Positions 47,625 to 56,227 of a DNA stretch of 64,000 nucleotides are shown one piece after another. The stretch is taken from sequence record PQ511149.1; one strand, 5' to 3'. Position 1 is the first letter of the stretch, and each line of letters begins with the position of its first letter. The notes beneath the pieces are model-generated. The model was not told the DNA's origin. It saw only the letters and a list, made by a program, of their open reading frames with translations, and did not search any database. The DNA comes from Escherichia phage NHEP11. The position numbers and the translations under genes are program-made.

Positions 47625-47695
47625 AATATTCTCCTCATGTTTTAATAGGACTACTATAACATAGCCCTATAATTGTGTAAACAGTTTTTGTGAAG

Positions 47696-48652
47696 TTATT
47701 TGAAAGGTTTTACCATATGGAAATTTTGTTTGAAACGTTTTACGTAATCGTCGTGTCCTAAGCTTTGGTACATACTTACAACTTTGCTGTAGTTTTCCCA
47801 GGCGTATTCACGGAACCAACCGGAGGTGATGCTTGTGCAGACTTTTTCTAATGCCATCATGAAACTGGCTTCAGGGTTAATTTCAAAGTTATTAGGAATC
47901 TGAGAACGTTCTAACGCTAGTACACATGATTCTTCGTATACACCGGCCAATTTGACCATTTCCGGTAATGATTCGAACTTCTCGCGTGAGGTCATGACTT
48001 CAGAACCATCTTTCATATAAAATGTATACGCTGGGCGGTCTGTTAGTGCAATGGCTTCATGAATAGTATCATGGTCATATGTATAGATGTCATCTTTAAA
48101 GAACGCACTTTTAGAAGTGTCAAGAACCGGGTGAGCATAGTTCAAAGTTTCTTTCTGGCGTTTCAGCATAATTTCAGTAAGTTCATCGTTCAGTGTAACA
48201 CCTTTACCACGAAGATACTGAATATGGTTCATAGTCTTTAAAAAGAATGGATTATTTTTCTTGAAACGATGAGACATCTTAATTGCAAGACATATCTCAG
48301 GAGTTGCCCAGTAAAACCCGTTCAAACGGTCTTTAGTCAAATTTTTCTTGGCGTATTTTAAAAGGTCATAAGAAGACGTGAAATCTTCAGGAGTGAGTTC
48401 ACCGACTAATTCACGGACATTAGTGATTGCCGGAACAATATATGCTTCAAAATGAGTTTCGCGTCCATTATGGAAGCATTTGAAAACTTGGACATCAGGG
48501 TTATCTTGGTGAACATATACACCCATCATTTGATTTTTGAATGCATTCCAAGAACCTTGGTCCGCAATAAAGTCCCAATCACTATTTTTGATAGCGCTAG
48601 AATCAATAAGACCGTGATAGTGAAGTGCACGAGAACCAATAACCAACATCAT
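47696..48652 (-). CDS. nucleotidyltransferase-fold-like protein
   Basis: 318 aa; N-terminal VIGSRALHYHGLIDSSAIKNSDWDF loosely fits the GS...DxD motif. Confidence 0.45.
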   Translation of the reverse strand: MMLVIGSRALHYHGLIDSSAIKNSDWDFIADQGSWNAFKNQMMGVYVHQDNPDVQVFKCFHNGRETHFEAYIVPAITNVRELVGELTPEDFTSSYDLLKYAKKNLTKDRLNGFYWATPEICLAIKMSHRFKKNNPFFLKTMNHIQYLRGKGVTLNDELTEIMLKRQKETLNYAHPVLDTSKSAFFKDDIYTYDHDTIHEAIALTDRPAYTFYMKDGSEVMTSREKFESLPEMVKLAGVYEESCVLALERSQIPNNFEINPEASFMMALEKVCTSITSGWFREYAWENYSKVVSMYQSLGHDDYVKRFKQNFHMVKPFK

Positions 48653-48680
48653 AATATTTTCCTCGGATTAATTCATTAAC

Positions 48681-48932
48681 TTAAATTTCACGACATGCGA
48701 TATTATATTCATCCCAGAGGTCATCATGTGAAGCCTCTACCAATGGAACGATTGTACCGTTTATGTCTTCATTATAAGGGCAAATTGTACAGTGCGCATC
48801 TTCGAATCGGATGCCTTTGTGTTCAGATTTTTTATAACGCATATCGAATATCTTTGCAAACTTTTCACGAGTAATAGTTTTAGCAACTACTTCGGTTCCA
48901 ATACTTTCGTAATAAATCATTGTGGTCTCCAT
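48681..48932 (-). CDS. hypothetical protein
   Basis: 83-aa ORF. Confidence 0.4.
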   Translation of the reverse strand: METTMIYYESIGTEVVAKTITREKFAKIFDMRYKKSEHKGIRFEDAHCTICPYNEDINGTIVPLVEASHDDLWDEYNIACREI

Positions 48933-48982
48933 TTAATTTGATAGGACTACTATAACATAGCCCTATCTTGTTGTAAACTGTT

Positions 48983-49180
48983 TTAGCAAGAATAACTAGA
49001 TGATACCCAGCCTTGAACAGTAATGCTATTATTAGATAATGAGATTGCGTTCTGGAGATTCAGACCTGCGTTATCTTCAATCCATAATGTAACTTCTTCG
49101 CGTTCTTCTGTTGCAATTTGGAACAGGTTTTCTAGAGCAGCTACTGCGGTACGTACAGCACAATCTAATTCACGAGACAT
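48983..49180 (-). CDS. small protein, WVSSSxxC-tail family
   Basis: 65 aa; ends QGWVSSSYSC. Confidence 0.45.
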   Translation of the reverse strand: MSRELDCAVRTAVAALENLFQIATEEREEVTLWIEDNAGLNLQNAISLSNNSITVQGWVSSSYSC

Positions 49181-49189
49181 ATGGTTTCC

Positions 49190-49462
49190 TTAGCAAGTGT
49201 GAGAAGATGCAACCCAACCGCCATCTTCAAGGCTCAGGTTGTAGTCGTATTGGTAAACGTCGGCCCATTCAGCATAGCCGTTTTTTGTACAACGTTCAAG
49301 ATCGGCTTTAAGATGTCCTGGTGAATGATATGTTCCACCCATACCATAAGCTGGATACAAGTCGAATGTTGTGTTTTGTTTATTAGCAATTTCTTTGGCG
49401 GCCTCAATAGCTGCATAGATTTTTGCTACGGCTTCAGCCAGTTCGGTTTGTTCTTTAGACAT
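49190..49462 (-). CDS. small protein, WVSSSxxC-tail family
   Basis: 90 aa; ends GGWVASSHTC; stop-SD-start spacing to the next paralog. Confidence 0.45.
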   Translation of the reverse strand: MSKEQTELAEAVAKIYAAIEAAKEIANKQNTTFDLYPAYGMGGTYHSPGHLKADLERCTKNGYAEWADVYQYDYNLSLEDGGWVASSHTC

Positions 49463-49471
49463 AATGATTCC

Positions 49472-49777
49472 TTAGCACAACGCAGAAGACGAAACCCAAG
49501 CACCTTCAGTAATAACGTAACCATTACCTTCACGCTTAACATCGCCACCATTATTTTCTATTTCATTTTTCATCCACTGGGATACGATTTCACCCTTAGG
49601 ATAATAAGTACGACCGCTACCATAATCACCTACAGAAAATGATACGGCATATTGGTCTGCGATCTTTGTTGCTTCTTCTTCGATACGTTCAGCTTGATTC
49701 AGAAGTTTGTAAATTGCATCTGAAGCGGATTTGGCATCATTAAACTCTGGTACTTTAATTTCAATAATCTTACTCAT
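49472..49777 (-). CDS. small protein, WVSSSxxC-tail family
   Basis: 101 aa; ends GAWVSSSALC. Confidence 0.45.
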   Translation of the reverse strand: MSKIIEIKVPEFNDAKSASDAIYKLLNQAERIEEEATKIADQYAVSFSVGDYGSGRTYYPKGEIVSQWMKNEIENNGGDVKREGNGYVITEGAWVSSSALC

Positions 49778-54622: not shown

Positions 54623-54913
54623 TCACCGTACCATATTAATGTAATTATATTCAATGCAACGTAATTTCAAAGGATTCTTGAAAATATCATATTCAAGAGG
54701 GCCTTTTTCTGTTTCAATAAAGAAATCAAAGTTAACTGTGTTAAATTTATCATCTTCACAGAGTAATTTAACCTGTGAAGACGAACGGTCAATGTAAACC
54801 TTTTCAACTTCAAAATATGTTAAAATGCCATAATCATCGATCAATGCTTTAGCTGCACGTTGATCGCTTTCGTATCCATTCTCGACAGATTTTACTTTAG
54901 CATAAAGAATCAT
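54623..54913 (-). CDS. hypothetical protein
   Basis: 96-aa ORF. Confidence 0.45.
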   Translation of the reverse strand: MILYAKVKSVENGYESDQRAAKALIDDYGILTYFEVEKVYIDRSSSQVKLLCEDDKFNTVNFDFFIETEKGPLEYDIFKNPLKLRCIEYNYINMVR

Positions 54914-55290
54914 GAGTGTTCCACCACTTCAAAAGTATGTGCATTTACAATCTGGTACCAGTCAAAATTTTCTTCAGCATTTTTGTAGATTTCACGAAGA
55001 GCTTCAACAGTTTTTCCTGTAGCAACAAGATCGTCAATACCTCCAAGAGGATAACAGTCGTAACCAGCAAACAGAAGGAAATTAATAGTTTCTGTAGGTT
55101 CTGGATGCAGAATGCCGTTATCATCTACCACTTCAAAGAAAGTGTAAGAAGGAGTACAAGTTTTAATCCAAGCCCATGCTTGAGCCGCTGAATCAAATGG
55201 TTTGCGTATCAAACGACAATCAGGGTCTTTAGAAGGATTTGCTTCAAAATCCGCATATACGTGATATTTCATTTTACTCACCTTTTGCAA
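54910..55290 (-). CDS. hypothetical protein
   Basis: 126-aa ORF. Confidence 0.45.
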   Translation of the reverse strand: MQKVSKMKYHVYADFEANPSKDPDCRLIRKPFDSAAQAWAWIKTCTPSYTFFEVVDDNGILHPEPTETINFLLFAGYDCYPLGGIDDLVATGKTVEALREIYKNAEENFDWYQIVNAHTFEVVEHS

Positions 55291-55480
55291 TTTTATCCAT
55301 AACGATAGCGATTAAGCCGATTAGAAATGCTACTACCAATGAGATAGAATTTTCTGTTGTTGTCAGTAGTCCACAAATGAATCCTACAAACATCGAAAAA
55401 CTAAAAGCCATTGAAGCAATTACTACAGCAACATTACGAATCAGTTCAGCGCGTTTCATTTTATTTCTCCATTTACTCAT
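55274..55480 (-). CDS. small membrane protein
   Basis: 68 aa, largely hydrophobic. Confidence 0.4.
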   Translation of the reverse strand: MSKWRNKMKRAELIRNVAVVIASMAFSFSMFVGFICGLLTTTENSISLVVAFLIGLIAIVMDKIAKGE

Positions 55481-55528
55481 TTGTTTTGATAGGACTACTA
55501 TAACATAATCCTATCAGCATGTAAACTA

Positions 55529-55792
55529 TTAAATACCTGCTTCGCGCTTAACATAAGCAACATAAGCTTCGATAGCTTTCTTGCTGGTAATTTTTACCTG
55601 ACCGCGTCCGTTGCCTTCTTTAGAGTTTTTCTTAACAACTACATTACCATCTTTAACACCCCATACATGGACATAAGTACCGATGTTTCGGTCGTAGAAC
55701 ATTGCATGGTCGTTGTTGTAAGAGAATGATTCGTAGTTCTCTGTCAGAGTAGAAGATTGAGATTCAGCGATAAATTCTTTATACGTTTTCAT
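55529..55792 (-). CDS. internal-protein-like (capsid-targeting leader)
   Basis: 87 aa; N-terminus MKTYKEFIAES. Confidence 0.65.
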   Translation of the reverse strand: MKTYKEFIAESQSSTLTENYESFSYNNDHAMFYDRNIGTYVHVWGVKDGNVVVKKNSKEGNGRGQVKITSKKAIEAYVAYVKREAGI

Positions 55793-55822
55793 TTGTTTTT
55801 TTTCCGTTTGGTTGTTGATTTG

Positions 55823-55860
55823 ATAGGACTACTATAACATAGTCCTATCAGCATGTAAAC
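55823..55860 (-). promoter_or_regulatory. early-promoter-like element with 26-bp palindrome
   Basis: ATAGGACT...AGTCCTAT inverted repeat around a -10-like TATAG; GTTTACA on minus strand; same family at 47643, 48938, 55487, 56180. Confidence 0.45.
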
Positions 55861-55863
55861 TAC

Positions 55864-56151
55864 TTACAGAAGGGTTTTTGCAATAATTTTAAGCTGAGCT
55901 ACAGAAATATGCTTAGCTTTAAACAGTGCAGTCTCTTCAGCCGGAGAGATAACAATAGTAGCGCCATCTTTCTTAGCAGACCATCCATCCCCTAAGTAAA
56001 CAGTACCTTTTACTTCTTCGCCGTCAACCAGACTAATCATTGGTTTACCCTCACGTCCTTTATTTGCTTTAATAACTTCGGAAGTAAGGGTCGCTTCAGT
56101 CAGAGTAGAAACGTTAGCATCAGGTGATATAAATTCTTTATAGGTTTTCAT
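55864..56151 (-). CDS. ipI: internal protein I-like (capsid-targeting leader)
   Basis: 95 aa; N-terminus MKTYKEFISPDANVSTLTEA; next to 57B as ipI is in T4. Confidence 0.6.
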   Translation of the reverse strand: MKTYKEFISPDANVSTLTEATLTSEVIKANKGREGKPMISLVDGEEVKGTVYLGDGWSAKKDGATIVISPAEETALFKAKHISVAQLKIIAKTLL

Positions 56152-56227
56152 TTTATTTCCTTGAGGTCGTTTATTTGATAGGATGATAGTAACACGCCAT
56201 CATCCTTATGTAAACTGTTTTGTGAAA

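Follow-up and report, generated by a model that had tools for sequence, protein, structure and literature searches.

Between the genes of the early region of Escherichia phage NHEP11 (PQ511149.1), one promoter-like element recurs many times, often with a palindrome built into it, which raises the question of what these elements are and what the palindromes do. We analyzed a window of 64,000 nucleotides (nt) of this genome. It is quite probable that the elements are T4-type early promoters in cassettes that resemble the PeSL elements described in T4-like phages, and that about half of them carry a stem that can fold only in read-through RNA. The window belongs to Mosigvirus (RB69/HX01/JS09-like T4-type coliphage) by sequence identity: positions 47000-57000 are 94-99.6% identical to the Mosigvirus coliphages NHEP36/NHEP10, CEV1, HX01, JS09, JN02, PhAPEC2 and RB69, and 32000-56900 likewise matches Mosigvirus phages at 94-99.6% identity. 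About 20-58 kb is taken up by the early region, nrdC - tk - vs - regB - denV - e - tRNA - ipI - 57B, which is transcribed leftward (gene order taken from PhAPEC2, RB69 and T4 annotation). Since the minus strand carries all of its genes, it is also the strand on which the elements must be read.

The composite pattern GTTTAC-N17-TAYWRT-NNN-CYTATC, allowing up to two mismatches, has 5 matches in the window, and the same pattern with an 18-nt gap has 11, with 0.03 expected for each. All 16 matches (0.06 expected in all) are on the minus, gene strand. This bears out the original prediction of a family occupying at least 15 intergenic spacers, and all 12 of the positions it listed correspond to an element. 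Additional copies are 51792, 44656, 43915, 30489, 23409, 22282 and 454 (elements are named by their higher coordinate, Table 1). The 8-mer TTGATAGG alone occurs 8 times against 2.2 expected. The consensus of 22 copies consists of an A-rich tract, GTTTAC, TGn, TAtaaT, and then aga-CC-TATCaAa; a typical copy reads, on the minus strand, TAA gta GTTTACA tgc TGATAGGACTA TGT TATAGT AGTCCTATCA AAtcaac...SD...ATG, where SD is the Shine-Dalgarno sequence. The 20 nt before the -35 hexamer are 41% A (33% in the background) and 70% A+T (63% in the window). Every copy is intergenic and in gene-strand orientation, placed after an upstream stop codon and before the SD and ATG of the next gene. The sequence CCTATCAA is kept at about -3 to +5, even in elements without a 5' arm.

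The GTTTAC(A) -35 hexamer, the spacer of 17-18 bp, the TGn/TAtaaT -10 region and the A-rich upstream tract match the published T4 early-promoter consensus (PMC2988021). In RB69, 57 early promoters have been predicted, with a GTTTAC -35 and a preference for C at -3 to -1 (Nolan 2006, PMC1524935). A generic sigma-70 scan showed no enrichment over shuffles (64 vs 58.7), and the T4-specific composite alone is enriched. It is thus well supported that the elements are putative sigma-70-type early promoters, their activity being read from the sequence. The early-promoter interpretation offered earlier agrees with the T4 consensus, the gene strand and the position between stop codon and SD/ATG.

Two further motifs accompany some of the promoters. 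The motif TTTCACAAAAC(A/T) lies directly 5' of the -35 in a subset (56216-56227, 47683-47694 and 23410-23421, minus strand) and at four T4 early promoters (ipI, trna.4, e.8 and the nrdC.11 region); it is probably a variant of the UP element, and in JN02 it forms the left edge of an inserted cassette. The spacers of 55860, 55526 and 34887 start with ATGCTGA or ATGCTTT (55846-55853, 55512-55519 and 34873-34880, minus strand), a MotA-box-like TGCTT motif 11-12 bp from the -10, and these three elements might be combined early and middle promoters.

To score the palindromes, the spacer of each element was paired without gaps to the stretch running from the -10 to the ATG, and the best stem was compared with those of 300 spacer shuffles. 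Of the 25 promoter-like elements in the window, 14 have a spacer-to-downstream stem at p<0.05, and these are of two classes. Class A comprises nine elements (56215, 55860, 55526, 51792, 48978, 47682, 37280, 33132 and 22282) in which the 3' arm spans about -10 to +3 and the -10 hexamer lies in or beside a loop of 6-8 nt; their RNA folds have energies of -12 to -18 kcal/mol (z -2.2 to -5.7). Class B comprises five (44656, 41382, 37729, 23409 and 454) in which the 3' arm is the SD region, 17-30 nt separate the arms, and the spacer directly after GTTTAC (TTCTCCTC...) is an anti-SD sequence; their folds have energies of -10 to -21.6 kcal/mol. A significant stem is absent by the spacer-shuffle test from 52449, 52078, 43915, 34887, 34608, 31497, 30489 and 29509. 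These approximately eight stem-less elements are comparable to the "degraded" PeSLs of PMC4122927.

The perfect inverted repeat of 8-9 bp first proposed around the -10 is therefore a property of a subset only. The repeat is perfect in 55860 (11 bp), 51792 (8 bp) and 22282 (10 bp), and near-perfect, with one G.T pair or mismatch, in 55526, 48978, 47682, 37280, 56215 and 33132; an independent repeat search also recovered the palindromes of 55860 and 55526. Among the examples originally given, those starting at 34567, 34848, 52033 and 52403 have no significant stem, and those starting at 37692 and 41341 have a long-range stem from spacer to SD instead of a local palindrome. The existence of two stem classes, the stem-less third of the copies and the earlier description of PeSLs had all been missed.

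Arms of unrelated sequence occupy the same position in the window (GATAGGACTA/TAGTCCTATC, GGATGAT/ATCATCC, TGAGAGCA/TGCTCTCA, AGGTCTAT/ATAGACCT and GATAGGAAGA/TCTTCCTATC), and further ones occur there in PhAPEC2 (GGGCTCAT/ATGAGCCC), ESCO47 (GATGGGGTA/TACCCTATC) and an IMG/VR contig (GATAGGGCTA/TAGCCCTATC). In element 37280 the outer pairs are compensated, with GGTAGGA/TCCTACC in place of the GATAGGA/TCCTATC of the main type. When 18 class A variants are aligned in register, 94.4% of cells are paired against 88.8% after shuffling (0 of 500 shuffles reach the observed value), although the alignment was hand-picked from stem-bearing elements and many of its rows are orthologues, so that these statistics are optimistic. 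Six of the ten pairs in this alignment change on both sides, and sliding the partner by 1-3 columns lowers pairing to 24-59%.

Stronger evidence that the pairing may be under selection comes from conservation across genera. The same stem scan is significant for 6 of 13 promoters in T4 and for 8 of 13 in IME08, and orthologous promoters (regB, denV and the internal protein (IP) locus after 57B) retain stems of differing sequence in three genera. The anti-SD stem of regB has the arms TTCTCCTCTAGTTG/CAACTAGAGGAGAA in the window, TTTTCCTCTTGACTG/CAGTTAAGAGGAGAA in T4, ATCTCCTGTAG/CTACAGGAGAT in IME08, and TTTCTCCTCTTTATG/CATAAAGAGGAGAAA and TCTCCTGTAAG/CTTACAGGAGA in two further IMG/VR lineages. 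It is kept in these five regB-promoter lineages despite different inner stems (CTAGTTG/CAACTAG, CTTGACTG/CAGTTAAG, CTTTATG/CATAAAG, TGTAAG/CTTACA and TGTAG/CTACA). RNAalifold places its core helix (8 bp) in all nine aligned leader sequences; the MAFFT alignment of the leaders has the arms out of register, and direct reading shows more covariation than its pair counts do. The T4 orthologue of the denV element has the arms TCTCCTGTAG/CTACAGGAGA. For these comparisons an exact-pattern scan of IMG/VR (GTTTAC-N15-TGTTATAGTA) was too permissive, as its 120 loci were mostly from unrelated phages and about ten T4-type copies were useful.

The anti-SD stem is absent from two more distant IMG/VR lineages with a diverged regB. 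One of them has a class A stem instead (GGGCCAT/ATGGCCC) and the other an upstream canonical terminator only. The nrdC.8 promoter is of class B in T4 and IME08 and of class A in the window. Taken together, the swap at regB and the switch at nrdC.8 make the two stem classes seem interchangeable over evolutionary time.

These comparisons bear on two explanations that do not involve RNA. In the first, the GATAGG...CCTATC palindrome is the operator of a dimeric phage protein, a still unidentified early shut-off factor. The mechanism by which T4 early promoters are shut off is unknown (PMC2988021, PMC3014915), a palindrome over the -10 and +1 is in the classic position for a repressor, and most class A copies share the outer half-sites GATAGG/CCTATC. 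However, the inner positions covary, and the stems TGAGAGCA, GGATGAT and GGGCTCAT share no sequence with the main type. The register also shifts by 3-4 nt among copies, CCTATCAA is conserved even without a 5' arm, the class A stem is present in only 9 of about 22 promoters, and the arm sequences of T4 and IME08 differ. We consider an operator very improbable. The earlier suggestion that the hairpin binds a regulator is likewise disfavored, as the arms differ completely yet stay complementary and the stems are found in a subset only. In the second explanation, the palindromes have no function and were inherited by the copying of one promoter cassette that was palindromic by chance. The near-identity of the commonest class A copies over about 40 bp fits recent copying or gene conversion, but independent arm sequences at the same position, compensatory changes, the regB, denV and IP-locus stems kept in three genera, and the 14 of 25 elements significant against spacer shuffles make this account hard to believe. 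The data support the view that selection acts on base pairing and not on a sequence bound by a protein.

If base pairing is what is kept, the question becomes in which molecule the arms pair. We assumed that transcription starts 7 nt after the -10, that is, at the A of CCT-A-TCAA. RNA started there lacks the 5' arm altogether and includes no more than 3 nt of the class A 3' arm. Because the predicted +1 lies between the arms, only read-through RNA holds both arms and can fold. In 21 of 26 variants, RNA of the sense strand folds more stably than RNA of the antisense strand (by 3.2 kcal/mol in the mean; Wilcoxon p=4e-4; the variants are not independent). Significant stems have about 9-10 G.T against 2-3 A.C at internal non-Watson-Crick positions, counted where these are flanked by Watson-Crick pairs, as a first count was confounded by A/C-rich flanks that extend the stems. 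The sense bias and the G.T excess favor a sense-strand RNA structure without being conclusive. Among the roles first suggested for the hairpin, an effect on read-through fits best, given the start between the arms and the more stable sense fold. Two other candidates, cruciform-dependent promoter control and processing by RNase III, are unlikely for arms of 8-11 bp.

The two classes differ in what the fold would do to translation. In class B, the stretch from SD to AUG is less accessible in read-through RNA, where its mean unpaired probability is 0.27-0.35, than in the RNA from the element's own start, where it is 0.60-0.87; in most class A elements it is the same in both. A promoter enclosed in a hairpin, with the SD/AUG pairing to a segment upstream of the predicted internal start, is thus found in class B only.

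Another possibility is that the stem-loops halt RNA polymerase coming from upstream and so act as terminators or attenuators, as proposed for PeSLs. A stem-loop of an RB49 PeSL cut lacZ expression about as much as rrnB T1 (PMC2839356), and in the window the stems are intergenic, with both arms in read-through RNA only. The RB49 stem tested is G/C-rich, whereas the stems here have 3-5 G-C pairs and A-rich tails, no T-run follows any of them, and a terminator scan of the window called no class A or class B stem as an intrinsic terminator. The loops of class B, 17-30 nt over the whole -10/+1 region, are atypical for terminators. Moreover, the genome uses canonical terminators elsewhere: GC-rich hairpins with a UUCG loop and a T-run are at 51102-51119, 52481-52496 and 34918-34931. 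Directly upstream of elements are 52481-52496 and 34918-34931, both before stem-less elements, and a terminator-like hairpin before 454. We regard termination by the stems themselves as unlikely. The stem-less elements are not cleanly those with an upstream canonical terminator, as 37729 and 454 have both a stem and a terminator.

The terminator-promoter composites at 52470-52496 and 34907-34931 (minus strand) are near-identical, each consisting of a UUCG-loop hairpin (GGGGACTTCGGTCCCC or GGGCCTTCGGGCCC) and TTTAGGGGGTC, with an early promoter about 20 nt further on. By BLAST, 34826-34931 aligns at 77% identity to the counterpart of the 52449 element in JN02. These composites resemble the PST/T4 type of PeSL, in which the stem is upstream of the promoter.

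We propose that each cassette is made up of a stop codon, an A-rich UP-like tract, GTTTAC(A), a spacer of 17-18 bp with TGn, TAtagT, CCTATCAA, an A-rich leader, the SD and the ATG, and that in roughly half of the elements the spacer has evolved complementarity to a segment downstream of the -10. RNA from the cassette's own start would lack the 5' arm and stay unstructured, and RNA reading through from an upstream promoter would form a stable hairpin. In class B, where the 3' arm is the SD, the read-through RNA would be poorly translatable. Occlusion of the SD would then mean that regB, denV and the others are expressed essentially only while their own early promoter fires, and this translational gating is well motivated. 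The class A hairpin would enclose only the -10/+1 region and leave the SD untouched; most likely it insulates the cassette from upstream transcription, possibly by attenuation or pausing, or as a 3' barrier by which the upstream message is protected once it has been cleaved.

The elements also coincide with differences between related genomes. We aligned 20-58 kb to five relatives (HX01, JN02, PhAPEC2, ESCO47 and RB69). Seventeen of the 49 distinct breakpoints fall inside elements, which account for 4.3% of the aligned sequence, an enrichment that is inflated because viable gene indels must end between genes. HX01, JN02, PhAPEC2 and RB69 lack the open reading frame (ORF) 55529-55792, which is flanked by the 55860 and 55526 copies; in each of these relatives a stretch of about 75 bp at the 55528/55787 junction aligns to both copies of the window, as it should if a single copy remains. 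JN02 and ESCO47 lack ORF 34611-34829, which is flanked by the 34887 and 34608 copies, and each has about 65 bp aligning to both window copies at the 34599/34813 junction. Judging from these alignments, the two putative cassette losses look like exchange between neighboring copies. In JN02, extra cassettes of promoter and ORF are inserted exactly at the -35 of 47682 and 51792. As dispersed direct repeats of about 40-75 bp, the cassettes could act at the DNA level as patches of homology for the gain, loss and swapping of modules between related phages.

The junctions raise the possibility that class A palindromes act as DNA hairpins or cruciforms, as preferred recombination sites (for endonuclease VII, for example), and have no role in RNA. 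Indel junctions do coincide with elements, and the phage encodes endonuclease VII. Nevertheless, the stem-less elements 52078, 34608/34887 and 43915 are also junctions, so what counts may be homology and not the stem, and for T4 recombination 40-75 bp of plain homology suffice. Other junctions are at the -35 edge, outside the stem (47690/47676, 51797/51783 and 41386). Arms of 8-11 bp with loops of 6-8 nt extrude poorly as cruciforms, and neither the sense-strand fold bias nor the G.T excess is expected of a duplex-symmetric structure. We consider a purely DNA-level role rather improbable.

Several points, besides the optimistic class A statistics and the inflated breakpoint enrichment, weigh against cassettes with a stem that acts in read-through RNA. 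About one third of the elements are stem-less, so the stem is not needed for promoter function. Tested against dinucleotide shuffles, the class B folds of 37729 and 454 do not reach significance. Few pairs make up the excess of G.T over A.C, which is suggestive only. The absence of a U-run makes classical intrinsic termination by class A unlikely, and the benefit of the class A stem is unproven. Promoter activity, the position of +1 and all effects at the RNA level are predictions, and a literature search for genome-wide 5'/3'-end maps of T4 or RB69 found none. The sequence family, its strand and position, the stems, their covariation, their conservation in T4 and IME08 and the indel junctions are observed directly.

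A broader reading can be put forward only tentatively: about half of Tevenvirinae early promoters may use their own spacer as the 5' arm of a start-bridging stem, which would label each transcript with the promoter it came from, and class B genes (regB in five lineages, denV in T4 and the RB69 group, nrdC.8 in T4 and IME08) would be translated only from their own immediate-early RNA and be silenced on read-through (delayed-early) RNA. If true, early-gene timing would have a general layer, made up of start-bridging stems, that has so far gone unremarked, and class B gating would explain why RegB synthesis is confined to the first 2-3 minutes. The anti-SD subclass would offer a simple, testable explanation of the tight timing of RegB and DenV synthesis. 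The approximately 22 sites would mark early transcription units and module boundaries in an RB69-like phage, and could explain the coming and going of small ORFs and IP genes among therapeutic and environmental isolates that are 95-99% identical.

Table 1. Early-promoter elements and an associated terminator in the window, with arms given 5' / 3' on the strand shown.
Feature	Position	Strand	Arms	Stem and fold	Promoter and context
Class A	56177..56215	-	56197-56206 AGGATGATGG / 56180-56189 CTATCATCCT	near-perfect; p=0.007; -14.6 kcal/mol, z -3.6	-35 56210-56215, -10 56186-56191; 5' of internal-virion-protein gene 55864-56151
Class A	55821..55860	-	55840-55850 TGATAGGACTA / 55821-55831 TAGTCCTATCA	perfect 11 bp; -17.7 kcal/mol, z -5.7	-35 55855-55860, -10 55831-55836 (TATAGT); 5' of ORF 55529-55792
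Class A	55487..55526	-	55506-55516 / 55487-55497	one U.G pair	-35 55521-55526, -10 55497-55502
Canonical terminator	52481-52496	-		UUCG loop, then TTTAGGGGGTC	directly upstream of element 52449
No significant stem	52412..52449	-		weak anti-SD only, p=0.51	
No stem	52040..52078	-			-35 variant ATGTAC; indel junction vs HX01, JN02, RB69
Class A	51756..51792	-	51772-51779 TGAGAGCA / 51756-51763 TGCTCTCA	perfect 8 bp, unrelated sequence; p=0.017, z -3.3	-10 TATAAT 51763-51768; insertion junction in JN02
Class A	48940..48978	-	48958-48967 GATAGGGCTA / 48940-48949 TAGTCCTATC	one G.U pair; -16 kcal/mol, z -3.8	
Class A	47644..47682	-	47662-47670 / 47645-47653	near-perfect	
Class B	44603..44656	-	spacer 44641-44650 TTCCTCCAAG / SD 44603-44612 CTTGGAGGAA	p=0.007; -17.8 kcal/mol, z -4.7	5' of denV
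No significant stem	43877..43915	-			5' of IP-like gene 43526-43855 (MKTYQ...)
Class B	41332..41382	-	spacer 41363-41376 TTCTCCTCTAGTTG / SD 41332-41345 CAACTAGAGGAGAA	perfect 14 bp; -21.6 kcal/mol, z -4.3	5' of regB
Class B	37678..37729	-	37716-37723 TTCTCCTC / SD arm 37678-37685 GAGGAGAA	arm test p=0.007; RNA fold vs dinucleotide shuffles z -0.85, not significant	
Class A	37240..37280	-		near-perfect; -15.7 kcal/mol, z -2.8	
No stem	34849..34887	-			-35 GTGTAC; canonical terminator 34918-34931 and TTTAGGGGGTC upstream
No stem	34571..34608	-		p=0.91	5' of nrdC.10-like gene
Class A, shifted register	33095..33132	-	33115-33125 AGGTCTATGGT / 33098-33108 ATTATAGACCT	near-perfect; p=0.013, z -2.2	5' of nrdC.8
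No significant stem	30451..30489	-			
Class B	23360..23409	-	23393-23402 TCCTCAATAG / SD arm 23360-23369 CTATAGAGGA	p=0.023, z -2.85	
Class A	22245..22282	-	22264-22273 GATAGGAAGA / 22247-22256 TCTTCCTATC	perfect 10 bp; z -3.1	-35 ATGTAC; indel junction vs PhAPEC2
Class B, weak	402..454	-	436-445 TTCCTCTAGG / SD arm 402-411 CCAAGAGGAA	p=0.01, z -1.1	terminator-like hairpin directly upstream

The genes 3' of the elements belong to PHROG families of unknown function (small ORFans) or encode internal virion proteins or RegB. The small genes 55529-55792 and 55864-56151 (minus strand, in tandem), and also 43526-43855, share the N-terminus MKTYKEFI/MKTYQ, which we take to be the capsid-targeting leader of T4 internal proteins; one of them matches the PHROG "internal virion protein" family. 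After 57B, HX01 and PhAPEC2 have one IP gene, the window and RB69 two, and ESCO47 three. Rfam covariance models applied to the 64-kb window reached the gathering score for two tRNAs only and matched no element. These, tRNA-Arg(TCT) at 53867-53943 and tRNA-Met(CAT) at 53950-54023 (minus strand), are the sole Rfam/ARAGORN matches in the window. Relatives have two or three tRNAs at this locus, the third being present in PhAPEC2 and ESCO47 (annotated as tRNA-Asx and tRNA-Asn).

Elements of this architecture have been described before. PeSLs were defined in RB49/phi1, where each joins an A/T-rich tract to a sigma-70-like early promoter, a stem-loop and an SD/ATG (Arbiol 2010, PMC2839356). Their stem-loop is mostly in the interval from the -35 to the -10 or over the -10, with G-T pairs tolerated, and individual PeSLs showed promoter and terminator-like activity and gave mini-circles by recombination between neighbors (PMC2839356). 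The description was later extended to PST/T4 and nt-1/KVP40, with the suggestion that all T4-like phages probably have PeSLs (Comeau 2014, PMC4122927). The elements of the window likewise combine an intergenic A/T tract, a putative sigma-70-type early promoter, a stem-loop and the next SD/ATG. They are repeated many times on the gene strand in plastic regions, here the hyperplastic region nrdC-tk-vs-e-tRNA-ipI, before small ORFans and adaptive genes. The stem is often in the interval from the -35 to the -10 or over the -10 and tolerates G.T pairs, and indels or replacements between close relatives begin or end at elements.

There are also differences. The host group, Mosigvirus/RB69-like, is outside the pairs described, and one third of the copies here are stem-less. 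Unlike in RB49, the promoter is of the T4 type (GTTTAC, not TTGACA), and the stems are A/U-richer (GATAGGnCTA / TAGnCCTATC), without G4...C4 tracts. The published PST/T4 stems are just upstream of the promoter, whereas many of those here, and in our T4 scan, bridge the start site. Pairing that spans the start site turns the "terminator" label of PeSLs into a testable idea in which read-through and locally initiated RNA are distinguished.

Conserved T4-early-promoter elements with A/T-rich stems, flanking the IP genes of T-even phages, are attributed to Repoila 1994 in the account given in PMC2839356. The copies at 55.4-56.2 kb are similar in having T4-type early promoters with A/T-rich stems and in flanking tandem IP genes (MKTYKEFI N-terminus) just downstream of 57B. 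The element type here is not confined to IP loci and extends across at least 34 kb of early region, from 22 to 56 kb in the window. The promoters predicted in RB69 (Nolan 2006, PMC1524935) are the same promoters in a near-identical genome, many of them 5' of novel ORFs; that paper mentions no hairpin, stem-loop or palindrome in them.

Hairpins that sequester the SD and contain an internal late promoter are known at T4 e, soc, 49 and I-TevI (PMC3014915, section 29). Class B resembles them in having a 5' arm upstream of the local start and the SD as its 3' arm, so that long transcripts would occlude the ribosome-binding site and locally initiated ones would not. In class B, in contrast, the internal promoter is early, not late, and the 5' arm is the promoter's own spacer; because the promoter is early, gating would restrict translation to the first minutes rather than delay it to late times. 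We found no description in the literature of such an early-promoter hairpin for regB, denV or nrdC.8, a search whose scope does not include Piesiniene 2004 (regB, 35 phages), which could describe the regB stem. The finding is real but largely known, and it is no new kind of system: on the sequence evidence the elements fit the PeSL architecture and are putative new members from RB69-like phages. The conserved anti-SD class at early promoters is the less familiar part, and what might be new is the generality and conservation of start-bridging stems, especially those of this class.

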